64,000 nt of DNA from Syntrophales bacterium (GCA_035358035.1 DAOPOS010000003.1:34513-98512); one strand, 5' to 3'. Positions 43,490-63,027 are shown, counted from the first letter of the stretch. Program-made: numbers and translations. Notes: generated by a model not told the origin, from the letters alone.

Positions 43490-43501
43490 GCCCGCCTCAT
43501 A

Positions 43502-44752: not shown

Positions 44753-44818
44753 GGCCGTTCTCGTGGTTGAGCGGGACCGCGCCCCCGCAGCGGAGGCCCC
44801 CGCGCATCGCCAGGGCGC

Positions 44819-45817
44819 TCACCAGGGCAGGAAGCGGTAGAGTTTGGCGAACATCTCGTAGACCTCGATCCAGTTCTGCAGGTCTTTGGCCGAGCGCAGA
44901 TGGGCCCGCTTGTTCACCATCACCCAGCTCATGTGGGCGGCGCCGTCCTTACAGGTCGCGCAGTCGCGGGTGGCCGACGTGCAGCAGCGGTGCATCGTCT
45001 CCAGGTCCGCCGCCCAGCGGATGAAGCGGATCAGGCGCTTCGGACGGGGATCGCGGGTGTCGAGCGGTTCCGTCACGGAGGGGCATTCCATCCACCCGAA
45101 GGGGCGCCCGAGCATCCGGCCGGTCGTGATGATCTCGTGGTAGTACCGGCAGGAGACGACGGTCCGCGGGTAGGCGTCGAGCATGGCGTCCATCTCGGCG
45201 CGGAGGTCGGCGAGCTGGGAGGGGGTCCAGGAGAACCCCTCCACGCCCTCGTCGTTCGACAACAGCTGCATGTGGACCTTGAGCCCCACGTCGGCGATGC
45301 GCCGGATGACGCGCTCCGTGCGGCCGATCTGCCGGGGGGTGATCGTGTAGAGGTAGTAGGTGTACGGGTCGCCCGCGTAGTTCCGGCTGGAGACGGCGAA
45401 GACGTCCCTCCCGCGGAGGAGCTTCTCGTCCTCCTCGTCCCCCCAGAGCGAGATCCCGATCATCATCTCGGGGAAACGGTCGCGGGGCGCCTTGATGAGG
45501 CCGTTCGTGGCGAGGTACGTGGGAATCCGCCGGTAGAAGGCCTCGACGCGGTCGAGGTGGAGGGTCGGTTCGCCCCCGATGAGGATGGCGAGATTCACCC
45601 CGCGCGCCTGCTCCCGGGCCACGAAGGCCTCCCATTTCGCGAGGTCGGTCTCTTCGGGCGCGGCCCGGTGCTCGCCGGAGGAGAAGAAGAAGCACCCCTT
45701 GCAGCGCAGGTTGCAGCGGTTCGTCACGTCGTAGATCGAACTGCGGATGTTCAGGCGGGAGATCGCCCGGTAGCGCGCGGCCCAGGGCTCATCGAGAAGC
45801 GTGCTGACGGTGTGCAT
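44819..45817 (-). CDS. radical SAM enzyme (paralog 2)
   Basis: IYDVTNRCNLRCKGCFF; GGEPTL; C-terminal Cys motif HRCCTSATRDCATCKDGAA. Confidence 0.85.
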   Translation of the reverse strand: MHTVSTLLDEPWAARYRAISRLNIRSSIYDVTNRCNLRCKGCFFFSSGEHRAAPEETDLAKWEAFVAREQARGVNLAILIGGEPTLHLDRVEAFYRRIPTYLATNGLIKAPRDRFPEMMIGISLWGDEEDEKLLRGRDVFAVSSRNYAGDPYTYYLYTITPRQIGRTERVIRRIADVGLKVHMQLLSNDEGVEGFSWTPSQLADLRAEMDAMLDAYPRTVVSCRYYHEIITTGRMLGRPFGWMECPSVTEPLDTRDPRPKRLIRFIRWAADLETMHRCCTSATRDCATCKDGAAHMSWVMVNKRAHLRSAKDLQNWIEVYEMFAKLYRFLPW

Positions 45818-45820
45818 GGC

Positions 45821-47011
45821 TTACGGTTTCCTCGCGGGGAGGGGATCCGGCGGGGCGATCATCTCCTGGCAGAGGGTCTCCCCCTTTTCGTAGCCCATCA
45901 CCCAGACGGCGAGATAGGTGTCGACGTAATCGAGCCAGGCGCGAAAGGTCCCTGGATCCGTGGCGTGCCGGTAGAGCCGCGCGGTGACCACCGCGCTCCC
46001 CGCCGCATAGTGGCGGCAGTCGTCGCAGTCCGTGTCGGGCACGCAGCAGGCAACGTCGCGGTCCCAGGTCAGGTCGGCCCGGAACTGGCGGAAGGAGCGT
46101 CCGAGGCCGAGGGCGGTGGAGGGGTTCCGCCGGGGATAGGCGCAGCGGTACAGGTCGTGGAGACCCTGGACCTCGGTGTGGGCGACGGCGTTGTAGGGCG
46201 AAAAGAGGACGTGGCCGGGGTGACGGTCCATCATCCCGGACATGACGTCCCGCGTCCGGGCGAGCGAGGCGGCGTCGTGGCGGAGGGGGCCCGTGTAGCC
46301 GACCGGCGCGGAGAACACGTTGAAGGTCGCCCTGCAACCGGCCGCGGCCAGGGTGTCCATGACGCCCGCGCACTCCCCGACGTTTTCCCGCGTGAAGGTA
46401 TAGACGAAGACGGCGCGCGGGTCGCCCGCGTAGTTGTCGATCTGGCGGCCGAGGAGGCCCTTCGCCTTGCGGACGCGCAGGCTCGTGGCGTCGTTGCCCC
46501 AGACGGAGATGTGGATCCTGTAGCCTACGGCGGGATCGATGCGGCGGACCCCGTTGGTCGCGATGCAGCCCAGGGGCGCCTCGGCGAAGCAGACCGCGAG
46601 CCGCTCGGGAACGAGCGAGGGCTCGGCCCCCGCCAGCACGACATAGGTGATGCCGCGCGCCTTTTCCCGGCGCATCAGGTCGCGCCACGCCTCCGGGTCG
46701 TCGTTCTCGCGGGCGAACTGCTTTTCGCCCTCGTAATAGTAGCAGCCGTCGCAACGGAGGTTGCAGCGGTTCGTCATGTCGTACGTGGATTCGCGCAGGA
46801 AAAAGTATTTTCGCACCTTTTCCCAGCGCTCCCGGACCTCCGGCGGGGCGAGCAGCTCGGAAAACTTCCACCGGCGCGGCGCAACCGCCACCGGGGCGGA
46901 AAGGACGTCCGCGGCGGCCCGGCGCTCACGGTCCGTCGCCCCCCCCGCCTTCGGGTCCCTGTGATCGTCGCGGCGCCGCACGCGGGCACCGCACGTCTTG
47001 GCCTCGCTCAT
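45821..47011 (-). CDS. radical SAM enzyme (paralog 1, with an Arg-rich N-terminal extension)
   Basis: The ATG at 47011 overlaps the ACP stop (ATGA). TYDMTNRCNLRCDGCYY; GAEPSL; C-terminal VACCVPDTDCDDCRHYAA. Confidence 0.8.
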   Translation of the reverse strand: MSEAKTCGARVRRRDDHRDPKAGGATDRERRAAADVLSAPVAVAPRRWKFSELLAPPEVRERWEKVRKYFFLRESTYDMTNRCNLRCDGCYYYEGEKQFARENDDPEAWRDLMRREKARGITYVVLAGAEPSLVPERLAVCFAEAPLGCIATNGVRRIDPAVGYRIHISVWGNDATSLRVRKAKGLLGRQIDNYAGDPRAVFVYTFTRENVGECAGVMDTLAAAGCRATFNVFSAPVGYTGPLRHDAASLARTRDVMSGMMDRHPGHVLFSPYNAVAHTEVQGLHDLYRCAYPRRNPSTALGLGRSFRQFRADLTWDRDVACCVPDTDCDDCRHYAAGSAVVTARLYRHATDPGTFRAWLDYVDTYLAVWVMGYEKGETLCQEMIAPPDPLPARKP

Positions 47012-47274
47012 GAATGCAATTTCTTTTGCAGGTATTCGGCGATCAACCGGAGGGTCTTCAACGTCGGATAGTCGTCCTCGTCGATGAAGACGCCGTACTC
47101 GTCCTGCAACACCAGGGCCACCGTCGCCAGATCCATGCTGTCCACGCCGAGCTCGTCCACCAGGTCCATATCGGGATCGAACGTCTCCGGCGTCACGTCT
47201 TCCAGCTTCAGCTCCTCGATCATGATCGTGGCAATCCGGAGGATCAGCGCCTGGGTGTCCATCCGCTCCGGCAT
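47008..47274 (-). CDS. acyl carrier protein
   Basis: ATG at 47274 after GGGAGG. Phosphopantetheine-attachment motif LGVDSMDLATV. 88 aa. Confidence 0.85.
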   Translation of the reverse strand: MPERMDTQALILRIATIMIEELKLEDVTPETFDPDMDLVDELGVDSMDLATVALVLQDEYGVFIDEDDYPTLKTLRLIAEYLQKKLHS

Positions 47275-47602
47275 GGTGCAACCTCCCTCACACAAAAAGT
47301 CCGCCCCGCTTCGGGTCACGGCCGTCCGAAAAGTGCCTTTTTGCAGGACAATCCCTCCATTTGTCAAGAGATTTATGGATCGTCCCATCCGGTTTTTTAA
47401 CACATCCGGCCGGGGGAAACAACGTTTTCATCGGGTCGTCCCTCCCGTCCCATCGCCCTGTGGGGAATGCCTGCGCGGCCTCCGGGGGTTGCGGCGATGC
47501 CGGACGGGATATTGCTGTTGATTCCTGTTTCCGGGACGTGTATGGTCCGACCGATATCGAAACAGCACCCCTTCCCCCGGGAGAGGGCATCCGGAAGGAA
47601 CT

Positions 47603-48340
47603 ATGAAAATCCAAGTCATCGGTTGCGGGGACGCGTTCGGAAGCGGGGGCCGGTTTAATACCTGCTTCCTTTTAGAAGACGGCGGGCAGCGCATCCTCGT
47701 CGATTGCGGCGCAAGTTCCCTTGTGGCGTTGAAGAAATTCGGCGTGGACCCCGATTCCATCGGGACGGTGGTTCTCACCCATCTTCACGGCGATCATTTT
47801 GGCGGCCTGATTTTCCTGCTGCGCGAGGCGACGCTTTTCAAACGCCGGACGAAGGCCCTGGTTATCGGCGGACCCGAAGGAACCGCCGAAAGGCTGGAGA
47901 ACGCCATGGAAGCCTTCTTTCCCGGCGGGTGGATCGCAAACCCGGCCTTCGGTCTCACCATCATGGAGTATCGCTCGGAAGAGCCCGTGTCCATCGGTCC
48001 GCTGCAGGTGAAACCGTATTCGATGCGTCATGCCTGCGGGGCGCCGCCCTACGCCCTGAGGATCCGTTTCGCCGGCAAGACGATCACCTACACCGGCGAC
48101 ACGGAATGGGTGGATTCCCTCGTTGATGCCTGGAAAGAAAGCGATCTCTTGATCTGCGAGTCGTACGTCTACTCGACGCCCGTCAACAAGCACTTAAGCT
48201 ATGAAACCGTCGCCGCCCGGCTGTCTGAGATCAACCCCAAACGGGTCCTCCTGACCCACCTCAACCAGGACATGCTCGATCGCCTGGCCGAATCGAAATA
48301 CCCGATAGCCCGGGACGGAATGATCATCGATCTTCACTGA
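47603..48340 (+). CDS. metallo-beta-lactamase-fold hydrolase
   Basis: THLHGDHFGG (HxHxDH motif) and ...TGDTEW.... Confidence 0.8.
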   Translation: MKIQVIGCGDAFGSGGRFNTCFLLEDGGQRILVDCGASSLVALKKFGVDPDSIGTVVLTHLHGDHFGGLIFLLREATLFKRRTKALVIGGPEGTAERLENAMEAFFPGGWIANPAFGLTIMEYRSEEPVSIGPLQVKPYSMRHACGAPPYALRIRFAGKTITYTGDTEWVDSLVDAWKESDLLICESYVYSTPVNKHLSYETVAARLSEINPKRVLLTHLNQDMLDRLAESKYPIARDGMIIDLH

Positions 48341-48453
48341 CGGAAGAGGGTACGATAGAAGGAAAATCCTTGACTTTTCGTCAAGGCTCTATAAACTACC
48401 CCCAAGCCGTAAGGCTGGTGGCCCTTTACCCAAGGTTTAGGACCGTGGCTGCG

Positions 48454-48483
48454 CCTCAGTCGCCGTTAAGACTGGGGCTTTTT
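48454..48483 (+). terminator. hairpin plus T-tract at the left island edge
   Basis: CCTCAGTC (48454-48461) / GACTGGGG (48470-48477) with one G-U pair, followed by CTTTTT. The loop contains the stop codon of the minus-strand 48466..48765 ORF. Confidence 0.45.
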
Positions 48484-48815: not shown

Positions 48816-48935
48816 TCAGTTTTCAGCTACCACAATCATTCTTCTGTGAATCCCCTGACCGAGGGCCTCGCGAGTGCAGATGATCCTGTCTTGCTGGCGG
48901 ATGATCTCGATTGCCTTGCTTCTTGTTGTATCCAT
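48816..48935 (-). pseudogene. 39-codon remnant resembling the N-terminal winged-helix of AbiEi_4-type antitoxins
   Basis: Translated by hand: MDTTRSKAIEIIRQQDRIICTREALGQGIHRRMIVVAEN*. The pattern A.E.I....II.T.EAL..GIH matches remembered AbiEi N-termini. It is truncated after about 39 aa. Confidence 0.3.
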
Positions 48936-48950
48936 GGGCAGGCACAGCAT

Positions 48951-49085: not shown

Positions 49086-51167
49086 CTATGGATACCCAAA
49101 GCCTTCAGCTATCATCCTCGAACGGATTTCAAGTAATTTTGGGCATTGGAAATCAGGAGGTATCCTGTTCGGTATACGCGCTGCGATACTAACAATCTTC
49201 TTTTCATCAGGCGTAAGCAAATTTTTCTTCTCAGCCCAATTGCTGATCTGCTGCCAATACTTGCCACCAAGTTGGACAACCTCTGCCTGTGCCGCAATAC
49301 CATTGTCCGTTTTTTGCAGTTTCTTCGCATCCTTTTTAACCGTCAGGAGCTCTGCCTTGTCCACTAGATCCGCGACGAATGAAGAAAGCAATGGAACCTT
49401 AATACTCTCTACCCTTTCCCAGCAGAGTTTCTTCTTACACCACTCCGTCACATTATCGACGAGCCTGTCTTCAGACACGATGGTATTGAAAACCGCCTCA
49501 GCTATCTGTTCAAGCTGTAACTCCATGGCCTTTGAAATACCCTGCTTCCCCCATATCGCTCTGAAGTCAAGAACCCTGCCTCCTGCCGATGTTCTGATCA
49601 TCATGGCAAGCTTGGCAATTGAATACGCAACGACGTTAGCCCTGTAACCGCCTTGATACCAAGGTTGTCTTGAAACCATTCTTTCTGTGTATTTCCAGAT
49701 GATAGCCCGTGCGACAATGTTTTTGAAATATTCTTCATTGAACTCAGAGTCGGATGCCTTCCACAATTCATCGATATGTCCTGCAAAATCCCTGAAGTTC
49801 TTTTGTGCACCAAGGCTAATAACATGGGGAATTTCTCGCCAAGCGTTCTCATACTTGGCAAGGTCCGTTTTTGTTATGAGTTGCTCGCGGGGATTCTGTT
49901 GCAGAAATCTGCGCTTCTCTGAGGGGGTCATCCTTACCTGTTCGTTAAGAAATTGTCCCCTCGCGCGTTCATAAAACCAGTGCGTCTCGTGTTGAGCCCC
50001 AGCAACAGCCGGTGCCCAAAGATGTCGCGAATGTGTCTCTATTCTCCGATGGAAAGGATGGTTAGAAAAGAAATCGGCTTCGCTTACTTTATTTTGGCTG
50101 TTTGCAGAACGCGAGATCTGCGGAATAAGTTCATCCGCCCGTTCTGGTCCAATAACGGAAAGTTTCATCTGTACAAAAATGTCTTTAAGCTCTGCCCTGT
50201 CTTTCCGTTTTGCCGTTGTCAGGGATGCGGTTGTCTGACCCCCATTAACAATCTGCAGATCGTCTGCACAGAGAATACCAAGCCCGTTTCCACCGCGTGC
50301 CACTTCTACGGTGCTGGCCGTAACTGCAATTCCATTATTGAATGCGAAAAACATTGAGGGCTGACTGAGGATTGTACTCCTTATACCGCTGTTGACACTT
50401 TTTGCTCCCCTTATGCCAAGAAAAGACCGGACATTTCTTTCGAGAAGCCGGCTTCCGTATCTGTCATAAAGATCGGCCAAGACAGTTGCAGGAATGACAC
50501 ATAAATAAGCTTTATATTCATCGCCCGTCTGGCTGGCTTCCAGACAGGGAATACCTTCTGGCATGAATTCTCGGAAGTCAATCTTCAGTTCATCCCGGCC
50601 AGTAGCAGCTTCAAAAGCCCTATGAAACCGGGCAGCATCCCAGATATGGAACTCGAATGGCTTATCGTTGATAATTCTTTCTGGCCAGTCTTTGACGCGA
50701 CTGCTCAGCACTGCGTCTGTCGCAAGGTAAAGCCTCAACCGCGCGATTGCCTGTTGATTCCTGAATATCTCAGTTGCTAGTGCGCGTGCCGGTGAACTGT
50801 CCTCAAGCTGCGGGTGAAGCATTCCCGACATTGCTTCTGTGATAAATGCAGTCAACCGTGAAAACATTGTTGAAGCATCCGTCTGTGTTAAAGTTTCAGC
50901 CACTGCGCCTCCTCGGAAATCAACTATCAGGAGCTTGAGTGAGTCATCAGATTCATCGAATGAATATCCATCTATGCCAAGTTTCAGGCGGCGGTCCTTT
51001 ACCCCGTTTCCTTCATGGTAACAGTGCTCAAAATCCGACAATTCCTCGGCATCCATGAGTTTCTCAGAAACTATTGTCACAAAAGCCGCATGGGTTATAT
51101 CGCCCTCTGCGGCTGCATGTGATTTGACTGTTTCAAGGAAGTCTTTCCGGAATTCTTCAATATCCAT
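49086..51167 (-). CDS. AIPR (abortive-infection phage-resistance) family protein
   Basis: N-terminal ...GIDGYSFDESDDSLKLLIVDF..., central ...LQIVNGGQTTASL.... Size about 690 aa. It sits last in the cassette. Family assigned from memory. Confidence 0.75.
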   Translation of the reverse strand: MDIEEFRKDFLETVKSHAAAEGDITHAAFVTIVSEKLMDAEELSDFEHCYHEGNGVKDRRLKLGIDGYSFDESDDSLKLLIVDFRGGAVAETLTQTDASTMFSRLTAFITEAMSGMLHPQLEDSSPARALATEIFRNQQAIARLRLYLATDAVLSSRVKDWPERIINDKPFEFHIWDAARFHRAFEAATGRDELKIDFREFMPEGIPCLEASQTGDEYKAYLCVIPATVLADLYDRYGSRLLERNVRSFLGIRGAKSVNSGIRSTILSQPSMFFAFNNGIAVTASTVEVARGGNGLGILCADDLQIVNGGQTTASLTTAKRKDRAELKDIFVQMKLSVIGPERADELIPQISRSANSQNKVSEADFFSNHPFHRRIETHSRHLWAPAVAGAQHETHWFYERARGQFLNEQVRMTPSEKRRFLQQNPREQLITKTDLAKYENAWREIPHVISLGAQKNFRDFAGHIDELWKASDSEFNEEYFKNIVARAIIWKYTERMVSRQPWYQGGYRANVVAYSIAKLAMMIRTSAGGRVLDFRAIWGKQGISKAMELQLEQIAEAVFNTIVSEDRLVDNVTEWCKKKLCWERVESIKVPLLSSFVADLVDKAELLTVKKDAKKLQKTDNGIAAQAEVVQLGGKYWQQISNWAEKKNLLTPDEKKIVSIAARIPNRIPPDFQCPKLLEIRSRMIAEGFGYP

Positions 51168-51184
51168 CTGAATCCTCCGTTTGT

Positions 51185-52105
51185 TTATTTTTCAAACGGT
51201 TCACAGAAGGTCAAATCCAGCTCGTATGTTACTTTGTTAATACCTGATGAAAGGCTTGATCTGATAATCCGTGGGAACCCATCGCGGACCGTAAAAAAAC
51301 GAAATATCCCGGATTTAAAAAAAAGATTCCTGTATTCATCGCTGTCAATGTATCCTGCAGCAAGCAAACGTTCTTCGAAAGTGGATAAGGCAACAGGGTC
51401 TTCTTTCAGCAGGCGCCTCATATCGTTAACAATGTCCGGGAGTGAAAATGCATCCGTGGATTCTCGATCTACAGGATCAAGGATTATTGCAACCAGCTCC
51501 AGTGGCTTGACGGCATCATCAAGCTGATCAGCAGAGGATATAATTACTCTTGAGAAACCGGTACGGATCGACTTTACTTCAAAATATCCATCCGGATAAT
51601 GGAAATCCTGTGCTGCATCGAGTGGACCCATCCAGCCTGTGATTGCCGGCCCAAGACCATATCGGGGTGTTGAGATCTGCCTGAGAAACAGCAATTCGCA
51701 GATAAGCCCTCTCAATGCTGATTCGTCCAGCAGCCCCGTATGGCCATGCTTAAGGAGACGTTGCCATCTTTCAAAACGGGCGAGCACGAACCGGGCAGGA
51801 TTTGTCTTATCTGAAAGATTCCGGCTCGATTCGACAAGATCCTCGCAGAGATGAGAAAATAACCTGCCCAGCTCCGACCGCACGAGACGAAACATCAGAG
51901 CCCACTGTCCATCATGCCTCTTCCTGCATATAACGTTAATTGCCTGACTCTGTACGGGTACGGTTTCCTCACCCTGAGTAATGAGGAGTAGAACACGGTC
52001 GCCGGACACATCGATACCAAGATAGAAATCCAGAGGATGATCTTCATCAATCCTTTGAAATCCACCAAGCTCAAGTATTTCCCACCGTGCTTCAATTGGC
52101 ATCAT
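51185..52105 (-). CDS. PD-(D/E)XK-motif nuclease-like protein (DUF4420-like)
   Basis: ...GLICELLFL...GPLDAAQDFHYPDGYFEVKSI... (D...E-x-K arrangement). It overlaps the upstream Z1 gene by 14 nt. Confidence 0.7.
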   Translation of the reverse strand: MMPIEARWEILELGGFQRIDEDHPLDFYLGIDVSGDRVLLLITQGEETVPVQSQAINVICRKRHDGQWALMFRLVRSELGRLFSHLCEDLVESSRNLSDKTNPARFVLARFERWQRLLKHGHTGLLDESALRGLICELLFLRQISTPRYGLGPAITGWMGPLDAAQDFHYPDGYFEVKSIRTGFSRVIISSADQLDDAVKPLELVAIILDPVDRESTDAFSLPDIVNDMRRLLKEDPVALSTFEERLLAAGYIDSDEYRNLFFKSGIFRFFTVRDGFPRIIRSSLSSGINKVTYELDLTFCEPFEK

Positions 52106-54785
52106 CTATATTCTCCAGATCGTCGTCTACTTCTTCCTGGAACATGTTTCTCCATTCAACCAGGTTAATCCGATATCTGACGCGGCGGGCTATGTCGGTA
52201 TCATCGAATTGCGGAAAACTCAGGCCTACGGCAACAAGAGGAATACCACCTGCTTCATATTCCTGGCCTTCATCCGTAAAAGGTTTCAGCAGATGTACAA
52301 GGAGCAGAGGCCGCTGTCTCTTTTTTCGATATTCCTTATCCGGTACGTTTTTCCCTTCATTATTAGCTCGATATTCGTCTTCTATTTTCGTAACCGACTC
52401 ATAGGGGATACCTTCCTTCTCGATTCCCCGTGAACCAACACGCATTGATCTGCCTGATATAAAAATTGATTGCGTATCGCTGTAAGCCTTGACTCCTCGC
52501 TTTTGAGGCCGGTATGTAATTCCAGATATATTTGCAGGAGCCTCTCCTCCGTTTGGCAGTACAATATCCCATAGCTGAAGTTTGGGCTCATCCGTCCTTT
52601 CCAGAAATGACACAAGGCTTTCTCTTTGAAAGGTCGTGTTGAGTGGATGACTGTCAAATCTCCCGAGAAACTGACAGACGATGTCTTTCGGCACATTATG
52701 CCAGATATTATTCCCCCATCGCGATGTTTCATTTGGTTTTCCCGCTGCAGCTAATGCTGCGATCAGTGTCTCCACTGCAAGCTTATTTGCCCGGTTTATG
52801 TCTTGAGATTTCTGCAGACGGGGCGTTTCAATCCCCTGACCACTTACGGAAATCACTCTTTCTATGGTTTGCGCCGACCGCATCTTGTTTCTGGCTGTAA
52901 CGATAAGAGCATCTGGATGGGCTCGCACTTTCAGTCCAAAATCTTCAGGCGTCAACTTGATGGCACTCATTCTGCGAATTTCACCGCGCAGTTCTTCTGT
53001 TGCAGAAGTGATGTGTTGATACCAGCTGCTGGCTTCCTCTGAGAGCCAGATGCTGCAAAGATCTGCATAACCGTCTCTGTACCCGAACCATCTTCCCATT
53101 TGAAGAAGCGTATCATACATTTGGGAATTCCTAAGAAAATAGCTTGTTGAAAGCCCTTCGAGTGTCAGTCCTCGAGAGAGACTGTTTCCACCAACGGCGA
53201 CAACCCTCAGTCCCGTATCTCTATATGCGGAATAATCGAGACTTGCTGCACCGGTTCTCTGGTTCACGGCTCTGACTTCGATGGGCAAAGCGGCACGCAA
53301 GAGCGCCCGCTGAACATCTGGCCATTCAAACCCGGTTCTTCCGAATTCTCTTTCCCAGATATTGCGGATAGCCGCGATTTTTACAGAGCGACTTGCTTCA
53401 GCGGGGGGTAGTTGACTGTAGTTGCGAATTTCCCTGCTTATCTCACGCAACTCATAATCCAGCATCCCCGCAAGCTGATCTTGGACATCGGTAAATCGAC
53501 TTACATTCACAAGCATTGAGCGATGCGTATTTCCCTCTCCGCGGAGGTCACGCAGGGTATTTGAGAGTATGAAGAATCTGAGTGCCTCAAGAAGGCTTTC
53601 TGGTAAATGGTCTATAATCAGATTACGCCTGTGCCTTGGCGGAAACACTTCTTCTGCATCATTGATTTCCCTGAGAATGTCGAGAGTTGCATTGTCTCCG
53701 AAAATAATCTGGGATCCAATGTAATTTGTGGGCGATTCCAAAGAATATATAAAATGTCTTGGGAAAAGATCATCACCGATCATCTCTCTATCTGAGTCAG
53801 GATCAATGAAAATATTCGCAAAAGGTGTGGCCGTAAATCCCACGTAACTGGATCGTGTAAAAAGATTGAGAAGCGCCCTGATTCTTTCATTGATGGCTGT
53901 TGGATCACTGTTTGCCGGATTTGTGTTTATCGAAGCATTATCAGCTTCATCATCAATAAACAGCACCGGTATATCTATTCTTCCATTGGTGTCCGCATTG
54001 TACGATCTCAACCAGTTTTCAAGGTTCTCAAGAATCCTTTTATTCTTCTTGACTACGACCAGGACTGGTTCTCTGAATGAATTCAGCTTGAAACCCAGTG
54101 TATTCATCAGCGAGCTCTTGAAGTCAGTCGTTTTGGAGGTAAAAACTCCTGCTGTCCTTCGTCTGTCAAGCAACCCGACCCCAACTTCTCTGGTTATTCG
54201 CTGCTGCGAGAGTAGTCCCGCACTGTCGAGTCCGACAAAACCAGCGTCAAGTCGTTCCTGGGTCTGACGACGGAGATTCTCCAGTGTGCCTGTCATGAGT
54301 ATGATAAGCCTGTAACCGGCATCTGCTGCCTTACAGCAAAGCGCTATATAGGTAGCCGTCTTGCCGGACTGAACATCACCCATTACAAGTCCCCTGCGCT
54401 TCCATTGGCCATCCCTGGATGGATCACCCATCAGATCGAGGACTTCATCGGCTATTCTGTCCAAGGTGCTGGTGACTCTTGGTGGCCAGCCATTCCGATT
54501 CAGGTACTTCTCATACCGCTGCCAATAATAGGGATCCATATCAGGCCGCCGTGCTGGCAACCATGATTGATGATCTCTTTCAACGACGGCAGTTCCTGTA
54601 TCCATCACGATGCGCAGCCTTGCATGGAGTCTTCGGACAATGATATCGCGTTCATCATCCGAGACCTGAAACATAGCTCTGAAGCCTTCAACAAGTCCGA
54701 GAATTGCCTCTTCAGTAGGCAACTGGTCCAGATTTAGAGTGGCTATAACCGCATTTTCGATCCGGAGGACATTTTCAGCCGACAT
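52092..54785 (-). CDS. Z1-domain P-loop NTPase (helicase-like)
   Basis: Walker A GDVQSGKT and Walker B/DEAD-like VLFIDDEADNAS. About 897 aa. It overlaps the upstream ATPase gene by 11 nt. Confidence 0.8.
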   Translation of the reverse strand: MSAENVLRIENAVIATLNLDQLPTEEAILGLVEGFRAMFQVSDDERDIIVRRLHARLRIVMDTGTAVVERDHQSWLPARRPDMDPYYWQRYEKYLNRNGWPPRVTSTLDRIADEVLDLMGDPSRDGQWKRRGLVMGDVQSGKTATYIALCCKAADAGYRLIILMTGTLENLRRQTQERLDAGFVGLDSAGLLSQQRITREVGVGLLDRRRTAGVFTSKTTDFKSSLMNTLGFKLNSFREPVLVVVKKNKRILENLENWLRSYNADTNGRIDIPVLFIDDEADNASINTNPANSDPTAINERIRALLNLFTRSSYVGFTATPFANIFIDPDSDREMIGDDLFPRHFIYSLESPTNYIGSQIIFGDNATLDILREINDAEEVFPPRHRRNLIIDHLPESLLEALRFFILSNTLRDLRGEGNTHRSMLVNVSRFTDVQDQLAGMLDYELREISREIRNYSQLPPAEASRSVKIAAIRNIWEREFGRTGFEWPDVQRALLRAALPIEVRAVNQRTGAASLDYSAYRDTGLRVVAVGGNSLSRGLTLEGLSTSYFLRNSQMYDTLLQMGRWFGYRDGYADLCSIWLSEEASSWYQHITSATEELRGEIRRMSAIKLTPEDFGLKVRAHPDALIVTARNKMRSAQTIERVISVSGQGIETPRLQKSQDINRANKLAVETLIAALAAAGKPNETSRWGNNIWHNVPKDIVCQFLGRFDSHPLNTTFQRESLVSFLERTDEPKLQLWDIVLPNGGEAPANISGITYRPQKRGVKAYSDTQSIFISGRSMRVGSRGIEKEGIPYESVTKIEDEYRANNEGKNVPDKEYRKKRQRPLLLVHLLKPFTDEGQEYEAGGIPLVAVGLSFPQFDDTDIARRVRYRINLVEWRNMFQEEVDDDLENIDDAN

Positions 54786-56247
54786 TTGAAAGCTCCTTGA
54801 TTATGGATTCTGTAATTTCAGGATACTGGCAGAAGGGCTCAAGGAGAATGAGCCGTTCTAACAGTCTCTCTCTGCCTCCCTCAATAGTATCAGCTGCTGT
54901 GAGCAGGCACTGCGCGAGTTCGATTAATTTCCCTTCAAGATTTTCTTCCAGATAAATTCTTGGTCTTTCTGAGGCCATATCGGCGTAAAGAGCATCTGCA
55001 GGAAAGGTTCGTTCCAACGTTTCAAGAACGAGCTCAAAAAGTTTGATGTCGTCAGCACTCAGTCTGTCTGTGAACGCAGAAACCAGTGGATGACGGCGGT
55101 TTACAATGTAGCTTATGCCATCCCTTCCTTCCATACGGGTCCATGAATGCACAAGCTTGTCATTGATTGTGGAACGACCGCGATATGTATAGACTCTGCG
55201 ACTTGTCCCCACAATTTTATCTATGATTCTTCTGAAATTCTGCCTGACCTCTTCTGGTGGATGAGCTGTAGATTTCTTGATATCAATAGTCCAGAGGTGA
55301 TCGAGCGCCGTGGGAATATCCACCCGGACCCGCGCAAGTTTTGATAGCTCCTCCTGTCGTGCTAGGCGAAACCATGTTCCCCAGATGATCAGGCGGCGAT
55401 TACGATAAATGTAGAACCCCTGATAACGCCGTAAACCCTCTTCTCCCCCGGCTTGTCGTAACTCAGCAGGTGTAAGTTTGCTGATATGTGGAAGTATGTA
55501 TGGCTTGATCAAGACGGCATGATTTTCGACCTCAATCAATTCATCCTGCAAAGGTTGGATAGCAGGATGCGACGAAAGAAATGGATCAACTGGAATGACA
55601 GGATTTTCGTTCAGGCGAATTTCAATCCTGCTTGTCGCTACTTCCGTTGACAAATATCGGTGAAATACGAGCGCCAAATGCTCACGCACAGTGTCCATTT
55701 TTTCAGGTAGAGCTCTCGCAATGGAACTCTCACCTGCGCATATTCTGTCAAGTTGCTGCCATATGACCAATGTCCCATGCCCCTGGTTCTGAAGAGCTTT
55801 GAATAACGGTAAATCTTCAATTTCTTCAGGTTCAGGCACATAAAGTATCCAGTCTTCGCGCTGGACAATAAGATCAATATCCCAGCACCTGGCTGCCATT
55901 GTATCATTTTTAATTGATACTACAGTCAGTTTCCGGCATTGGGAGAGAGATGCTGTCTTCAGTCCCAAGCCAAATCTCCCGAGATCATTGTCTGCCCGTA
56001 TTCCCCAAGGATCTCTGCTTCCATGCCTCATAGCCTGAGTGAGCTCGGCTGGTTCCATTCCGGTTCCATCATCGAGGATGGCCACGTAAGGATCATCGTG
56101 TGGTGAGTATCGAACTGATATGCTTTTTGCGGCGGCTGAAATGCTGTTGTCGATGATATCCGCTATAGCGGACTGCAGGGAATAACCTACTGACCGCATT
56201 GATTCAATCAGTGTGGGTGCATAAGGAGAAACTCTGAGTTCAGCCAT
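54775..56247 (-). CDS. GHKL (MORC/MutL-like, HATPase_c_3-type) ATPase
   Basis: Bergerat-fold motifs IADIIDNSISA, ILDDGTGM, GRFGLGLKTAS. Confidence 0.85.
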   Translation of the reverse strand: MAELRVSPYAPTLIESMRSVGYSLQSAIADIIDNSISAAAKSISVRYSPHDDPYVAILDDGTGMEPAELTQAMRHGSRDPWGIRADNDLGRFGLGLKTASLSQCRKLTVVSIKNDTMAARCWDIDLIVQREDWILYVPEPEEIEDLPLFKALQNQGHGTLVIWQQLDRICAGESSIARALPEKMDTVREHLALVFHRYLSTEVATSRIEIRLNENPVIPVDPFLSSHPAIQPLQDELIEVENHAVLIKPYILPHISKLTPAELRQAGGEEGLRRYQGFYIYRNRRLIIWGTWFRLARQEELSKLARVRVDIPTALDHLWTIDIKKSTAHPPEEVRQNFRRIIDKIVGTSRRVYTYRGRSTINDKLVHSWTRMEGRDGISYIVNRRHPLVSAFTDRLSADDIKLFELVLETLERTFPADALYADMASERPRIYLEENLEGKLIELAQCLLTAADTIEGGRERLLERLILLEPFCQYPEITESIIKELSNVG

Positions 56248-56334
56248 GCTCCGAAGCCCTTTCTAGGGTATATTGATAAGAACATCTGCCAGGTATCAGC
56301 TCCAGAATGTAGTTCAACCCACTGGATACTTATA

Positions 56335-58299
56335 TTATTCTTCCATCATTTGCTCTCTTGCTGCTAACTCCTTGGCCAGTCTGCTTCCTAATTTATCCTT
56401 GTCAGCTAATTCACACTCCCAAACCGTCAAAATCAGCCAGCCAAGCTTCCTGATTTCCTTTTCAACGTGCTTATCTCGTTTCACGTTGCTCGCGAATTTT
56501 TTTTCCCAGAATTCCTGATGTGTTTTTGGTGTGTATGCCAGCTTACATCGCGGGTGACGGTGCCAGTAACATCCATGGACAAAAACAACAGTTTTAAGCC
56601 GTGGGAGAGTTATGTCTGGTTTCCCGGGCAATTTGAGAAAGTGCAACCGGAATCGATACCCTAGAGAGTGAATAATTGATCTCACAACCTTCTCGGGTAA
56701 TGTATTTTTCGACTTGATACGCGACATGTTCCAACTTCTGCGCTGTTCAGAAATTCGCTCCATCACATTCAATGCTCCATCTTTTTTAAACACTCCCTTC
56801 ACGATTTCAGCGATCTGCAATGCCAGTAAAGGAGGTACAGCGTTGCCCACTTGGGTATATTGAGATGTTCTGCTGCCTTCGAAAAAATAATTGTCCTGAA
56901 AAGTTTGAAGCCTGGCTGCTTCCCGAACTGTGAGACTTCTACATTGCACCGGATCAGGGTGAATAAAATAGTGCCCGTCTTTGGATATGTGTGCAACAAT
57001 GGTTGTAGAAGGAGAGTTTTTTAATTGGACCCTGAATCTGTCTGAAAACATCCTGCCTTCCACGGCTTCATCAACGTTCTTATGTGCTGGTCTCAGTTTC
57101 GGGGGAAAGTCGCCAAGAGTAGGAGATTTACCTTTAACTTTTGCATAGCAGGCAGCAAACAAGTAACGATACAAATCTTCTTGCATGTGCCTTTTCGCAG
57201 CGTGGTTACAAACCCCCGGCAACTTCTCATCTGCGAACCACCATGCATGCTTCTTTAGCCATTCCGACTTTTCTTCAGTATATTTTAGTGGGACAAATTC
57301 GCCACCAAGGGTCAGATTGCTCCTCAAACCGGTGGCTTCCTTCATTTCAATAATAAGGTCTTTTGGAATGGCGGCATCGTTTTCAGACGTACTGGTGAAC
57401 AAACTCAGCAGTCGCGTCCAGTTCTCGTTACTGTCAGGGATTCTCGACAATCCGCTTCGAATGCGTGGCATGTCGCAGATAGCATCCCATAGATGAATCT
57501 GCTCTTCACGATTTTCCAGATGATCCGGGTCAATACCAAGGTCTGTCCTTAAGCCCAGAATAATGATCCTGTGGCGACTCTGAGGTATGCCATAATTTTC
57601 ACTATAAAGGAGGTAATCAGAATCTGCGCATGATTTTGAAGAGCGTTGCTTAACGAGAGGATAGAGTTTGTAGCCATGATCAGCAAGATTCTTCATGGAG
57701 AGGTCTTGGAGAATACGGGGGAACGTGGATTCTCCTTTGACACTTGACGACAGAAGCCCCAGGACATTTTCCAGGACGAAGACCGGCGGTTTATGATTAA
57801 TTAATATTCGGAGATACTCACGATACAAGTAGTGGCGGTGATCCCTCTCGTACTTTTTAGGATCTTCCCCTCGCATCCGGTTGCGTCCAATTATTGAATA
57901 CGCTTGGCAAGGAGGGCCGCCGAGAAGCACCCAATTCCCTCTGCCAGCGAGTGCCCTTTCAATGCGCTTGTGAATTTCCTCAGCGTTTTCTTTACACAGC
58001 TCTAAATTCCATGCTTCCTCTTTTGCGGCTGCTGCTTGCTCAGGATAGTGCCTGAATAATTCATCCCGCGTTATGCCATCACCAGTAATATATCGGTAGT
58101 ATTCATCCGGCACTTCCCCATGTGGGAATTTTCTAAAGAAGCTTCTTAATTCAAGAGTCTTGTGTGCACTGGGATCTTTTTCGATCGATAAACATAGTTC
58201 AAATATCGGATTCCCGGTTTCATCTCTCAAAGACGAAAATCCTTCACCAAGCCCTCCTGGACCTGCAAACATGTCAATAACCGGAATCGGCAACTCCAT
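56335..58299 (-). CDS. DNA (cytosine-5) methyltransferase fused in frame to a Vsr very-short-patch-repair endonuclease
   Basis: MTase motifs DMFAGPGG, GGPPCQAYS, VLENV, GIPQSRHR, GNAVPP. The C-terminal 142 aa (56335-56763) read MSRIKSKNTLPEK...LPGKPDITLP...VFVHGCYWHRH...TVWECE, which is Vsr. The ATG at 58299 is preferred over the TTG at 58308. Confidence 0.9.
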   Translation of the reverse strand: MELPIPVIDMFAGPGGLGEGFSSLRDETGNPIFELCLSIEKDPSAHKTLELRSFFRKFPHGEVPDEYYRYITGDGITRDELFRHYPEQAAAAKEEAWNLELCKENAEEIHKRIERALAGRGNWVLLGGPPCQAYSIIGRNRMRGEDPKKYERDHRHYLYREYLRILINHKPPVFVLENVLGLLSSSVKGESTFPRILQDLSMKNLADHGYKLYPLVKQRSSKSCADSDYLLYSENYGIPQSRHRIIILGLRTDLGIDPDHLENREEQIHLWDAICDMPRIRSGLSRIPDSNENWTRLLSLFTSTSENDAAIPKDLIIEMKEATGLRSNLTLGGEFVPLKYTEEKSEWLKKHAWWFADEKLPGVCNHAAKRHMQEDLYRYLFAACYAKVKGKSPTLGDFPPKLRPAHKNVDEAVEGRMFSDRFRVQLKNSPSTTIVAHISKDGHYFIHPDPVQCRSLTVREAARLQTFQDNYFFEGSRTSQYTQVGNAVPPLLALQIAEIVKGVFKKDGALNVMERISEQRRSWNMSRIKSKNTLPEKVVRSIIHSLGYRFRLHFLKLPGKPDITLPRLKTVVFVHGCYWHRHPRCKLAYTPKTHQEFWEKKFASNVKRDKHVEKEIRKLGWLILTVWECELADKDKLGSRLAKELAAREQMMEE

Positions 58300-58300
58300 C

Positions 58301-59137
58301 CTATCCAAAGTACCCCTTCCTCAACTCTCTGGTCACCGCCCGGTACACTTCATCAAATTCCGGTAGGTCAGCCATCTGCGCCGCCAGTCTGACGGCCCAG
58401 AGCTTCCTGAGGCGCGCCTCCTTCCGCTGAAACAGATCCTTTGCATCGTTGAGTGTTCTGCTGCGAAATGCTGCCTTTGCCCGGACCGCCTCAATCAGAT
58501 CGGCGGGTTTGACAAGCCTGTTGCCGGACAGGTGCCAAAGGTCGTAAAGATCCCGGGGCTCGTTCCGCGCCGGATCGAACAGGGCAACGATCTTTTCAGC
58601 GGCTATTTCGTTGAGGGAATAGACGCCGATGACCGCGTCTGTCGGAAGGTCACGGTATTCGGCATAGGCCTTGAGCACGGGCAGGATGGCTACGGGAAAG
58701 ACAATCCGCTCACGGATCGTTATGTCCACCTTGACTTCCTTACCGGCGGCGCCGGGAAGAGGCCCTTCGTAGGCGAGGTAGAATGTGTGGCTGTTTTCGT
58801 GGGAGTGCCTGTCGTATCGGCTGAAGCGGATCTTGACGCCCGACGCTTCTTCCGTGCATTTGAATCCCTCGTCGAGATGGCCCTGGATTGTTTCAAAGGG
58901 GGTCTCTTCGCGCAGGGTGAAATCGAGATCTTCTGAAAAGCGGTAATCAGGGATGTAGCATTTCTTGATGGCCGTACCGCCTTTGAAGGCAAGAATGTCC
59001 CTGAGCGGGGTTGCGGACATGCCCACGAGGAACCAGGAAAGGCAGTAGTCCTTTTCCAGGACAGCCTCGGGAAGGCGGCGCGCTCCCTTCCTGGCGAGGC
59101 GATTTGACAGCAGCGACAGATCGCGTTGCGGAATCAT
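58301..59137 (-). CDS. AbiEii/AbiGii-family nucleotidyltransferase toxin (DUF1814 type)
   Basis: ...LAFKGGTAIKKCY...RFSEDLDF... is typical of AbiEii. Its start shares 1 nt with the abiEi stop. Confidence 0.85.
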   Translation of the reverse strand: MIPQRDLSLLSNRLARKGARRLPEAVLEKDYCLSWFLVGMSATPLRDILAFKGGTAIKKCYIPDYRFSEDLDFTLREETPFETIQGHLDEGFKCTEEASGVKIRFSRYDRHSHENSHTFYLAYEGPLPGAAGKEVKVDITIRERIVFPVAILPVLKAYAEYRDLPTDAVIGVYSLNEIAAEKIVALFDPARNEPRDLYDLWHLSGNRLVKPADLIEAVRAKAAFRSRTLNDAKDLFQRKEARLRKLWAVRLAAQMADLPEFDEVYRAVTRELRKGYFG

Positions 59138-59970
59138 CAGGTCCTCACGGTTGAGAGGAATTCATCGGAAGAAACATTGAGCCGGAGCCGCCACTTGCGC
59201 AGGTACTTCCCCTCGGCCGGCAGGAGCGGATCAAGACTTGCGTAAGTGTCCGTCAGTTTGCTCCGGAGCTGATCCCGGTCCGCTGGGGCGCCGATATCGT
59301 AAAGCTCCATGAGATATCCCAGCCGGCGGATGACGGCGCCGACGTCCATTCGTAGCGCATAATCGACCAGCCTGACGGCTTTCAGGTCCGGCTTCCTGAT
59401 CCAGAGTCCCTTGGCCAGTTCGGTGAGGCCGCCGCAGTATTCCGGCATACGGAGCCCGTCCAGAATGGTCCGTTCGGGATCGCTGATCCTGACCTTTTCC
59501 TGCTTGGTGACCCAGTGGTCCATCAGGCCGAAGAACCCGTCCTTTGCGGAGGCGATGAACCGGAATTCGGTTCCCATGATCCGGATGGGTCGGCGCGGCG
59601 CGCGCGTTGTCACGTGGAACACCAGTTGAGGCTGCGTGACCATGCCGTGGATTGACATCGCCGAGCCATGGGAGAGAAAGTAATCTTTCCCACCGGCCAG
59701 TTCGCGGGCCACAATGAAGGGGTTCCCCAGGTACTCCCGCTCTCTCCCCAGTTCGAAGGGGACAAGGGTGAAAAGGCCGGGCTTCAGACGCGCGACCACG
59801 CCTCTGTTCACAAGCGTTCTGACCAGGCTGCGGGTAGTTGGTTCTTCGAGGCTGAGGATCCGCTGGACATCTTCCAGGCGAAAAACAAGCTTGTTGTCTT
59901 CATGGAGTGATGTGACAAGCAGTGCAGCCTGGGGGCCGAGCGTCTTCAGCGGGCCGTTATGTTTCATCAT
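59137..59970 (-). CDS. AbiEi-family antitoxin / transcriptional regulator (COG5340-like)
   Basis: The N-terminal wHTH-like ...FRLEDVQRILSLEEPTTRSLVRTLVNRGVVARLKPGLFTLVP; the position upstream of abiEii. The ATG at 59970 is preferred because the TTG at 60006 lies upstream of the predicted promoter. Confidence 0.8.
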   Translation of the reverse strand: MMKHNGPLKTLGPQAALLVTSLHEDNKLVFRLEDVQRILSLEEPTTRSLVRTLVNRGVVARLKPGLFTLVPFELGREREYLGNPFIVARELAGGKDYFLSHGSAMSIHGMVTQPQLVFHVTTRAPRRPIRIMGTEFRFIASAKDGFFGLMDHWVTKQEKVRISDPERTILDGLRMPEYCGGLTELAKGLWIRKPDLKAVRLVDYALRMDVGAVIRRLGYLMELYDIGAPADRDQLRSKLTDTYASLDPLLPAEGKYLRKWRLRLNVSSDEFLSTVRT

Positions 59971-59993
59971 TGAAGTGTGTCCTCTGGGAGCAC

Positions 59994-60022
59994 ATAATGC
60001 ACGCAAAGCATGACATTGTCAA
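59994..60022 (-). promoter_or_regulatory. candidate sigma70-type promoter of abiEi
   Basis: The minus strand reads TTGACA (60022-60017), 17-nt spacer, CATTAT (59999-59994). GAGGA lies 9 nt before the ATG at 59970. Confidence 0.5.
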
Positions 60023-60590: not shown

Positions 60591-61601
60591 TTGGACCCGG
60601 TCATCCCCTTCCCGCACCGCCAGTACGCCCATTGCGAGAGCGGCGTGGTCGCCGCCCTGCTCACCCATTACGGGCTGGCGATTTCGGAGCCCCTGGTCTT
60701 CGGGATCTCCGGCGGGCTCACGTTCGCCTATATCCCCTTCATCAAGATCACGAATCTTCCCATCATCTCCTACCGGATGTTTCCGCACGCGATTATCAAT
60801 GGGATCCAGAAGCGTCTCGGCATCCGGTTCCGGACGCGCACCTACCGGGACCCGCAAAAGGCCCACGGCGATCTGGTCGCGCTCCTGTCCGAAGGCCGGG
60901 TGGTCGGACTTCAGACGTCCGTGTACTGGCTCCCCTACTTCCCCGACGAGATGCGGTTCCAGTTCAACGCCCACAACCTGATCGTGTACGGGATGGAGGA
61001 CGGGGAATTTCTCGTGAGCGATCCGATCGCCGACCACCTGGTCCGGATCGCGCCGGCCGACCTCGAAAACGCGCGGTTTGCAAAGGGGACCCTCGCCCCG
61101 AAAGGATTCCTGTACTACCCGGAAGACGTCCCGTCTTCGATCGCGCTGGAAGAACCGATCCGGAAGGCCATCCGAAAGACGGCGCAGATGATGCTCTACG
61201 CCCCGGTGCCCCTCATCGGCATCAAGGGCATCCGCACCCTGGCCGGCCGGATCGAACGCCTGCGCCGGCACCCGGACGGGCGCTACGTCCGGAATTTCCT
61301 GGGGCATATTGTCCGGATGCAGGAGGAAATCGGGACCGGCGGGGGCGGCTTCCGTTTCATGTACGCCGCCTTTCTGCAGGAGGCCGGCGACACGCTCGGA
61401 CTCCCGGTCCTGAAGGAGGCCTCCCTCCGGATGACCGAATCGGGCGATCTCTGGCGGACCTTCGCGCTCGCCTGCGCCCGGGCCTGCAAGCGCAAGGGCG
61501 ATCCCGTCGATTTCACCGCCATCGCCGACCTCGCGCGCCGGTGCGCCGACTTCGAGGAGCAGGTGTTCCGGATGCTCCTGCGGATGGAGCGGACCGCCTG
61601 A
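60591..61601 (+). CDS. BtrH-N-like (papain/C39-like) plus DUF4872-like protein
   Basis: The TTG start directly follows the upstream stop. N-terminal ...HRQYAHCESGVVAALL... (Cys in the HCESG context) recalled from BtrH_N-type proteins. Confidence 0.55.
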   Translation: MDPVIPFPHRQYAHCESGVVAALLTHYGLAISEPLVFGISGGLTFAYIPFIKITNLPIISYRMFPHAIINGIQKRLGIRFRTRTYRDPQKAHGDLVALLSEGRVVGLQTSVYWLPYFPDEMRFQFNAHNLIVYGMEDGEFLVSDPIADHLVRIAPADLENARFAKGTLAPKGFLYYPEDVPSSIALEEPIRKAIRKTAQMMLYAPVPLIGIKGIRTLAGRIERLRRHPDGRYVRNFLGHIVRMQEEIGTGGGGFRFMYAAFLQEAGDTLGLPVLKEASLRMTESGDLWRTFALACARACKRKGDPVDFTAIADLARRCADFEEQVFRMLLRMERTA

Positions 61602-61653
61602 CGCGCCCCCTCCCCGCTTCCGGGCCGGGCGGGGTTCCCGCGGGACAACGGCC

Positions 61654-62972: not shown

Positions 62973-63027
62973 CGGGCTCTCCTCCCCGGTCCGGGGGACG
63001 CATCGAGACGGTCGCACACGGCGGGCC

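Follow-up and report, generated by a model that had tools for sequence, protein, structure and literature searches.

The window, a stretch of 64,000 nucleotides from a Syntrophales bacterium (GCA_035358035.1, DAOPOS010000003.1:34513-98512), carries at positions 49086-58299 a cassette of five co-directional genes on the minus strand, which we assign from its sequence to the Mza anti-phage family (MutL-like ATPase, Z1, AIPR) as a horizontally acquired, Dcm-linked member. The first gene encodes a C5-cytosine DNA methyltransferase fused to a Vsr endonuclease (Dcm-Vsr), and the other four encode relatives of MzaB, MzaC, MzaD and MzaE. The cassette adds a further example to a catalogued family and is not the discovery of a new system. 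We hold with moderate confidence that it would act as an ATP-dependent restriction-modification (R-M) system that marks self DNA with 5-methylcytosine (m5C), the methylation protecting the host.

An earlier note on this DNA had read the same five families from the sequence and proposed a defence system with no known mechanism. The profile search returns the expected families, DNA_methylase with Vsr, HATPase_c_3, Z1, DUF4420 and AIPR, and the PADLOC protein models for MzaB, MzaC, MzaD and MzaE are all matched. The defence reading holds. The system is not of an unnamed or untested kind, however, and the statement that no biochemical or phage-challenge work existed is out of date. In later papers, mzaABCDE is cited from Gao et al. 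2020 (Science) as a system validated against phage, and an E. coli copy has been tested. In a 2022 preprint, the cloned E. coli Mza gave 10^3-10^4-fold protection against T4(C) and T4(hmC) and about 10-fold protection against wild-type T4; the purified E. coli MzaD cuts DNA, and the mutations D187A and P297A weaken the effect. A Serratia 'mza subtype' (SDIC2) confers at least 1000-fold protection. We found in the literature no phage test of the Dcm-Vsr-linked clade itself.

Cassette architecture and composition

The open reading frame (ORF) listing reproduces exactly the packing described in the earlier note. The mzaB- and mzaC-like genes overlap by 11 nt (54775-54785) and the mzaC- and mzaD-like genes by 14 nt (52092-52105), while gaps of 87 nt (56248-56334) and 17 nt (51168-51184) separate Dcm-Vsr from the mzaB-like gene and the mzaD-like from the mzaE-like gene, respectively. 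Every internal start of the cassette is preceded by a Shine-Dalgarno-like GGAG or AAGGAG. An in-frame TTG at 58308 offers an alternative start for Dcm-Vsr, giving a protein of 657 aa. The coordinates of all features are collected in Table 1.

The GC content of the cassette is 0.468, with single genes at 0.454-0.474, in surroundings of 0.666 (positions 1-47000) and 0.673 (61600-64000). The hand count of 42-47% made earlier was slightly low and essentially right (46.8% computed, against about 67% in the host). The GC content at third codon positions (GC3) is 0.43-0.46 in the cassette genes and 0.92-0.95 in two host genes, and an abrupt GC step at about 58300 coincides with the Dcm start. This foreign composition identifies the cassette as horizontally acquired, as had been proposed.

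The same cassette, with identical proteins, is found on at least three independent metagenome contigs (L001-L003) and is therefore not an assembly artefact. On L001 the HATPase was called as a shorter protein of 374 aa; we rejected it as a variant, since tblastn gives 100% identity over the full length, so that the short call reflects another choice of start by the gene caller. The catalytic motifs of the cassette proteins are all intact, and none looks degraded.

The Dcm-Vsr fusion protein

The protein is composed of a C5-cytosine DNA methyltransferase (aa ~1-506), a short linker and a Vsr endonuclease (aa ~513-640), detected by Pfam as DNA_methylase (1.7e-44) and Vsr (1.1e-24). Both halves score above the curated NCBIfam cut-offs: 133.6 versus 100.65 bits for TIGR00675 (dcm) and 128.1 versus 97.85 bits for TIGR00632 (vsr). 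The translation contains the methyltransferase motifs I (FAGPGG), IV (PPCQ, with Cys131), VI (ENV), VIII (QSRHR), IX (REAARLQTF) and X (GNAVPP), as well as the Vsr motifs PDI, FVHGCYWHRH, RD and WEC, with catalytic and zinc residues present. The target-recognition stretch (aa 301-360) shows a conservation of just 8-16% among 33 full-length homologues.

The fusion is found in L001-L003, and in none of the 74 complete relatives surveyed below are Dcm and Vsr in a single reading frame; in the nearest genomic relatives, such as L006 and L010, they are abutting separate ORFs. The fusion is peculiar to this lineage. It occupies the place that MzaA has in canonical Mza.

The MzaB-, MzaC- and MzaD-like proteins

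Each core protein was aligned with 74-78 homologues from other genomes, and residues present in at least 95% of the sequences were taken as conserved. The NCBIfam models for MzaB-E (NF041932-NF041935, 'MZA anti-phage system associated') carry cut-offs set at equivalog level.

The MzaB-like protein is a GHKL ATPase of the MutL/MORC type, matched by Pfam HATPase_c_3 (1.4e-33), by PADLOC MzaB (1.1e-84 over residues 6-479 of 490) and by NCBIfam MzaB (1.6e-109, 366 bits, cut-off 850). The residues conserved across 75 homologues, D30/N34 (motif I), D59xGxG63, G90RxGxG95-K97, G158T159 and K325, cover GHKL motifs I-IV and the lysine of the S5 domain. The closest solved structure is that of human MORC2, which is matched at the ATPase N-terminus only (E=2e-4). 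A weak match to NF050001, the NCBIfam model of the BbrUII/HgiDII restriction enzymes, is also observed (E=3e-4).

The MzaC-like protein is matched by Pfam Z1 (3.3e-77), PADLOC MzaC (3.6e-148) and NCBIfam MzaC (2e-167, 559 bits, cut-off 1500), and in addition by a REBASE-derived PADLOC model named 'Type II helicase domain protein' (6e-41). It consists of an N-terminal region (aa 1-120), a motor core (~120-640) and a C-terminal domain (640-897) that has no assigned family. Its conserved residues (79 homologues) comprise the Walker A motif G136xxxxGKT143, a literal DEAD box in D278DEAD282, T318AT320 and Q562MGR565...R570, which make the Z1 protein a motor of superfamily 2 (SF2). More than 7780 homologues of it are detected at E<=1e-10.

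The MzaD-like protein is probably the DNA-cleaving subunit. It is matched by Pfam DUF4420 (1.7e-69), PADLOC MzaD (4.5e-12) and NCBIfam MzaD (2.7e-34, 119 bits, cut-off 420), and is the least conserved component, with 27-42% identity across loci. The residues E137, D167, E176-x-K178 and P278 are nonetheless conserved in its 75 homologues. D167 and P278 align with D189 and P299 of the protein at the MzaD position in Thalassospira marina, annotated 'PD-(D/E)XK motif protein', in which the spacing of 110 residues is that between D187 and P297, the positions mutated in E. coli MzaD. By alignment and spacing, D187 and P297 would therefore correspond to D167 and P278 here. PDB sequence searches with the Z1 and DUF4420 proteins returned nothing meaningful.

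The MzaE-like AIPR protein

The last protein of the cassette is made up of an AIPR_N domain, an AIPR core and a helical C-terminus. It is matched by Pfam AIPR (1.2e-98) and AIPR_N (1.5e-38), by PADLOC MzaE (1e-86) and AbiU (6e-24) and by NCBIfam MzaE (4.3e-107, 359 bits, cut-off 1050). Its conserved polar motifs are E243xNVR247, N277NG279, N308GGQTT313, K335, N356xQN359, D365 and H370.

AlphaFold2 models have a mean pLDDT (predicted local distance difference test) of 85.5 for the full-length protein and 72.7 for the core domain alone. Foldseek searches of the PDB with the whole protein and with the core domain gave no match at E<0.1; the best matches, at chance level, are 9jfl_A, a chain of a DndBCDE-DndI entry (E=0.39), and the ParB-N structure 5k5d (E=2.8). 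N308GGQTT was considered as the mark of a ParB/DndB/DUF262-like domain and set aside as unsupported, there being no significant Foldseek match. PDB sequence searches with the single sequence and with a profile also returned nothing meaningful. None of the Mza-specific components has a solved structure, the sole PDB relative being human MORC2 through its GHKL ATPase domain.

The two most conserved polar loops of the AIPR core, aa 242-256 (ERNVRSFLG...) and 357-365 (SQNKVSEAD), are the lowest-confidence parts of a model that is confident elsewhere. Loops that are conserved and poorly modelled would fit a flexible ligand- or DNA-binding site.

Distribution and linkage to Dcm and Vsr

A survey restricted to one genome per species yielded 80 loci, spread over Acidobacteriota, Pseudomonadota, Bacillota, Chloroflexota, Planctomycetota, Nitrospirota, Actinomycetota and other phyla. 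As the earlier note had asked of a genuine system, the gene neighbourhood is conserved: all four core genes are present in 74 of the 80 loci, and all 74 keep the B-C-D-E order on one strand. Complete cassettes also occur on plasmids, some of them conjugative, and on viral contigs of IMG/VR, where 24 of 27 carry Dcm.

A Dcm homologue lies in the 10-kb flanks of 67 of the 74 complete loci, within 1.5 kb in 62 of them, and Vsr is present in 50, leaving 24 cassettes without it. By this survey the methylase-linked form is the common one in nature, and the sigma-factor form tested in E. coli looks like a minority. About 30 loci have Dcm/Vsr upstream of the core and about 32 have it downstream of AIPR (the latter mainly in Bacillota); the strand is occasionally the opposite one. 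Loci that differ in the side or strand of Dcm still have a member of the same Dcm family (39-49% identity) with the core. No other candidate restriction gene stands between methylase and core in the window, nor in the annotated plasmid examples, so that the MzaBCDE core is the only candidate partner of the methylase in the window.

Co-divergence was analyzed by partial Mantel tests. Once the divergence of the Z1 core is removed, Dcm divergence shows no coupling to the divergence of MzaB, MzaD or MzaE, three proteins that are tightly coupled to one another. An exploratory comparison of Dcm with the Z1 C-terminus gave r=0.29 (p ~0.001); this is weak evidence of coupling, because the B/D/E control pairs are also significant and point to residual shared phylogeny.

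Proposed mechanism and alternative explanations

In the proposed R-M system, the Dcm domain would methylate C5 of cytosine at a specific short motif on the host chromosome, thereby setting the self mark, and the fused Vsr would nick the T:G mismatches that arise from m5C deamination, which would lower the mutational cost of the methylase. MzaB as a GHKL clamp, MzaC as a Z1 SF2 motor, MzaD and MzaE, produced in fixed proportion through translational coupling, would assemble into one effector complex. On unmarked DNA, ATP-driven clamping, looping or translocation by MzaB/MzaC would deliver or license cutting by MzaD, and phage or plasmid DNA would be destroyed directly without killing the cell. 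MzaE would be a conserved obligatory partner, probably one that regulates or senses by binding DNA or nucleotides. The protection of self from MzaBCDE by methylation, the MzaBCDE complex and the choice of the mark-reading subunit are what we infer here; anti-phage activity, the lack of growth arrest and the nuclease activity of MzaD are carried over from the literature on relatives.

This reading is favoured by a Dcm linkage that is both tight and widespread, by enzymes that are intact, by the results for the E. coli relative and by the GCWGC modification reported in Listeria. The REBASE-derived PADLOC models, which place Z1 proteins in Type II systems as partner helicases, also count in its favour. 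Several observations weigh against it. Canonical Mza has a sigma-factor-like MzaA and does without a dedicated methylase, which means that MzaBCDE can in principle be independent of a methyl mark. Dcm/Vsr varies in position and orientation, and 7 of the 74 loci have no Dcm, some of them limited by the length of the contig. The Dcm target-recognition region is highly variable and MzaB, MzaC and MzaE are well conserved, and no subunit is thus pinned down as the reader of each differing motif. To these are added the uncoupled divergence of Dcm from MzaB, MzaD and MzaE, with only the weak r=0.29 for the Z1 C-terminus, and the scores of all four core proteins, far below the NCBIfam equivalog cut-offs. 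The transfer of function from E. coli Mza extrapolates across about 35% identity, and methylation, cleavage and protection by this cassette are predictions.

Some of these observations would suit an arrangement of independent neighbours, in which a solitary Dcm-Vsr lies beside a methylation-independent MzaBCDE that recognizes infection by other means, as canonical Mza must, and tells self from non-self without use of the methyl mark, a view we regard as somewhat unlikely. The canonical system, reported active, has MzaA in the place of the methylase, and the changing side and strand of Dcm/Vsr and its uncoupled divergence speak in the same direction. Defence genes are also known to cluster without functional ties, and an AbiE pair abuts the cassette here and lies near a cassette on an Agrobacterium plasmid. 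Yet AbiE homologues were found in none of the same 80 loci. In 62 of 74 genomes from many phyla no more than 1.5 kb separates Dcm from the core, and Dcm remains of the same family through rearrangements, which is far tighter than ordinary clustering in defence islands. Moreover, the methylase has no other restriction-gene partner in the window, and the Pfam description of Z1, Iyer et al. 2008 and Miller et al. 2022 all give a methylase as an associate of the core.

Abortive infection (Abi), which the earlier note had offered as an alternative, would give MzaB, MzaC and MzaD the task of detecting incoming DNA, with the AIPR protein as a toxin that stops or kills the infected cell. It draws on the match to AbiU, kin of the lactococcal AbiU, on the work of Makarova et al. 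2012, who count AbiU1/AIPR among the Abi proteins, ascribe to them a HEPN toxin domain at the N-terminus and list them as frequent R-M companions, and on the presence of AbiE, a true toxin-antitoxin Abi pair, directly upstream. The 2022 preprint, however, reports no growth arrest in E. coli Mza cultures at any multiplicity of infection, including high ones. The N-terminal domain of the AIPR protein is modelled as mixed alpha/beta with three- to four-stranded sheets and not as the all-helical fold of HEPN, and no Rx4-6H motif was noticed in aa 1-200 in an inspection by eye that was not a systematic search. According to a 2026 review, AbiU resembles a restriction-endonuclease-like nuclease and has an effect of just 10-100-fold. 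Altogether, we consider a suicidal toxin very unlikely.

Even less credit, jointly, is given to two further explanations: a Type IV-like nuclease directed against foreign modified DNA, and an excision machine akin to very-short-patch (VSP) or mismatch repair that serves the methylase. In the 2022 preprint, restriction by E. coli Mza is strongest on unmodified T4(C) and weakest on T4 with glucosylated hydroxymethylcytosine (glucosyl-hmC), the opposite of what a modification-dependent enzyme does. A repair machine would account for a component list that mirrors E. coli VSP repair, an analogy drawn by Iyer et al., and for the presence of Vsr in 50 of the 74 loci. But 24 cassettes lack Vsr, canonical Mza protects without Dcm and Vsr, and a mobile, patchy distribution that includes plasmids and viral contigs is the pattern of defence and not of housekeeping repair.

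Within the R-M reading, Dcm-linked Mza could form a distinct class of ATP-dependent R-M machine that borrows the logic of VSP and mismatch repair, with a MutL-like MzaB recruited through the methylase/Vsr module (physically fused in this lineage), a poorly conserved Z1 C-terminus reading methylation and the AIPR protein serving as a new DNA- or nucleotide-sensing switch that licenses MzaD. The conserved Dcm/Vsr linkage, the weak Dcm-Z1 C-terminus co-variation and the lack of an AIPR fold match are the grounds for this idea, which we advance as a speculation and think quite unlikely.

Mza is listed among the known defence systems, yet it is among the least understood of them. The Dcm-linked cassette is the simplest handle on its mechanism, as classical tests of host-controlled modification can tell whether MzaBCDE is an m5C-gated restriction enzyme. 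It also bears on the bacterial MORC-like ATPases that operate with nucleases, which are relevant to the origin of the eukaryotic MORC proteins.

Genomic neighbourhood

The cassette and an AbiEi/AbiEii pair sit between a lipid or polyketide-like host biosynthetic cluster and a group of host genes (BtrH_N/DUF4872, M48 peptidase and CHASE2 protein). The earlier note had missed that the gene run continues into AbiE at the 5' end of the cassette. A distance of 1 nt separates the stop codon of AbiEii (58301-58303) from the ATG of Dcm, and abiEi and abiEii overlap by 1 nt, so that AbiE and cassette form a run of seven tightly packed co-directional genes. The pair is intermediate in composition (GC 0.58-0.59, GC3 0.70-0.72), which suggests a separate acquisition, older than that of the cassette. 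By tblastn, homologues of the AbiE of the window were found in none of the 80 related loci (AbiE proteins are very diverse), and we therefore treat AbiE as a neighbour and not as a component. A promoter-like site (60022-59994, 10 of 12 matches) lies just upstream of abiEi, and transcription from it might run on into the Mza-type genes.

On the Agrobacterium salinitolerans plasmid NZ_CP074397 (1707-12775), an AbiEii/AbiEi pair adjoins a Vsr-Dcm-ATPase-Z1-PD(D/E)XK-AIPR cassette, on the opposite strand. The association of AbiE with Mza may be recurrent.

Table 1 Features in and around the cassette (positions counted from the first nucleotide of the window)
Feature	Position	Strand	Remarks
Dcm-Vsr fusion	56335-58299	-	654 aa from ATG
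MzaB-like GHKL ATPase (MutL/MORC-type, 'paraMORC')	54775-56247	-	490 aa
MzaC-like Z1-domain SF2 helicase/translocase-type ATPase	52092-54785	-	897 aa
MzaD-like PD-(D/E)XK nuclease (DUF4420), predicted	51185-52105	-	306 aa
MzaE-like AIPR-family protein	49086-51167	-	693 aa
AbiEi/AbiEii type IV toxin-antitoxin pair	58301-60006	-	PADLOC 1.3e-76 each; Pfam AbiEii 3.4e-38
MBL-fold (metallo-beta-lactamase fold) hydrolase	47603-48340	+	GC 0.59, intermediate; convergent with cassette; best matches RNase Z
Small ORFs, 99 aa and 44 aa	48466-48765, 48816-48950	-	downstream of AIPR gene; ~50% GC
Lipid or polyketide-like host biosynthetic cluster	42221-47403	-	GC3 0.92-0.95

On the other side of the cassette, the MBL-fold hydrolase shows sub-threshold similarity to NF041851, 'cyclic nucleotide-degrading phosphodiesterase' (E=1.7e-24, 87 versus 400 bits), and to the anti-Pycsar Apyc1 family of Pfam (E=3.5e-9, 37 versus 50 bits). 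It may belong to the host as an ordinary hydrolase or to the island as a degrader of signalling nucleotides. The 99-aa ORF has a weak match (E=0.005) to PBECR2, a phage Barnase/EndoU/RelE-like nuclease family. Both small ORFs were rejected as parts of the system, since they are present on the three near-identical contigs only and at no other related locus. A hairpin with a T-run is located at 48453-48478.

In the biosynthetic cluster, genes for two beta-ketoacyl synthases and two radical-SAM enzymes are joined by one for a small PP-binding acyl-carrier protein; an AMP-binding enzyme and a thiolase-like protein lie further upstream of it (35372-39691). As to the borders of the island, the window contains no tRNA and no convincing flanking direct or inverted repeats, and no integrase is encoded among the flanking ORFs scanned.

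Comparison with known defence systems

The cassette shares with the Mza of Salmonella and E. coli the GHKL ATPase, the Z1 protein, the DUF4420 nuclease and the AIPR protein in the same B-C-D-E order, and its tight co-directional arrangement is also that of the canonical Thalassospira locus. The latter, on a T. marina plasmid, encodes a sigma-70-family MzaA of about 750 aa, an ATPase (the MzaB-position protein, annotated 'ATP-binding protein'), Z1, a PD-(D/E)XK protein and an MzaE named as such by NCBI. Over nearly their full lengths, the four core proteins are 37% (B), 37% (C), 34% (D) and 33% (E) identical to its products.

Unlike canonical Mza, the cassette has the Dcm-Vsr fusion in place of the sigma-70-like MzaA at the first position. 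Thalassospira MzaA has no tblastn match in the whole 64-kb window (E<=0.01), and no MzaA model is among the matches listed for seven proteins against PADLOC (for Dcm-Vsr, the best 25 of 56) or for eight against NCBIfam. With all four core proteins below the equivalog cut-offs (366/850, 559/1500, 119/420 and 359/1050 bits for MzaB to MzaE), the cassette represents a clade separate from the tested Mza. The logic of self and non-self likely differs as well, resting on an epigenetic mark here and possibly on transcriptional control there. Loci of the Dcm type on Agrobacterium and Pseudarthrobacter plasmids carry generic NCBI annotation only.

On the T. marina plasmid (NZ_CP024200, 4064-15928), the N-terminus of MzaA bears ankyrin-like repeats, and directly after the Mza genes come genes for an ordinary restriction endonuclease and for a Dcm methylase. 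An m5C system accompanies even this MzaA-type locus. A Helicobacter sp. plasmid (NZ_AP028024, 3871-9313) encodes a Z1 protein, with no ATPase, DUF4420 or AIPR partners, beside a restriction enzyme of the HaeIII family and its Dcm. The association of Z1 with m5C therefore extends past cassettes of the Mza type.

A methyltransferase also accompanies the 'methyltransferase-encoding mza' of Listeria monocytogenes ST87 (Commun Biol 2023, PMC10687267), whose genomes are modified at GCWGC/GCSGC, a correlative link. This supports the action of such methylases on the host genome; the target-recognition region of the window enzyme is divergent. As in the MutL-Vsr partnership of E. coli, a MutL-like GHKL ATPase gene is found beside Vsr. 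In contrast to E. coli Dcm/Vsr and to Type II m5C R-M systems with vsr, Dcm and Vsr are fused in the window, and the partner is a four-protein ATPase/nuclease module in place of a single Type II endonuclease.

With Type I and Type III R-M systems the cassette would share a methyl mark on self DNA and an SF2-type motor ATPase coupled to a PD-(D/E)XK nuclease. It differs from them by the absence of HsdS/HsdM or Mod subunits, by the additional GHKL clamp ATPase and AIPR protein, and by a methylase that is a stand-alone C5 enzyme of variable position. Assignment to Type I/III was rejected, the Pfam ResIII match being below threshold (E=0.004, 17.6 versus 22.5 bits). DISARM and Druantia, suggested by the best PADLOC matches of the methylase, DrmMII and DruM, were likewise rejected in the absence of partner genes: the DrmA/DrmB/DrmC and DruA-E/DruH models have no match among the seven proteins scanned with PADLOC. 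The DrmMII and DruM matches reflect general C5-methylase similarity.

The paraMORC3/Shedu type I-D protein of V. cholerae, VcSduA (PMC12137116), also combines a GHKL ATPase with a PD-(D/E)XK nuclease, and its ATPase is proposed to gate the nuclease in a direct, non-abortive defence. In VcSduA and in BbrUII/HgiDII, however, ATPase and nuclease form one polypeptide, without Z1 or AIPR, and the likeness is limited to the ATPase domain.

The closest descriptions are those of gene neighbourhoods. The survey of MORC-like ATPases to which the earlier note referred is that of Iyer, Abhiman & Aravind 2008 (PMC2292703), who described operons of paraMORC, superfamily II (SFII) helicase, restriction-endonuclease-fold nuclease, DCM, VSR and AIPR, predicted an R-M role and a looping mechanism for them, and likened the component list to E. 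coli VSP repair, where Vsr works with MutL and a helicase. All six elements are present here, as a GHKL+S5 ATPase, an SFII helicase, an E-D-ExK nuclease, DCM, VSR and AIPR. Miller et al. 2022 (PMC9523054) described a 'Type II' system of Z1, PD-(D/E)XK, cytosine methyltransferase, AIPR and MORC. Both descriptions are computational only, and the window provides an instance of them in which, however, Dcm and Vsr are one polypeptide.

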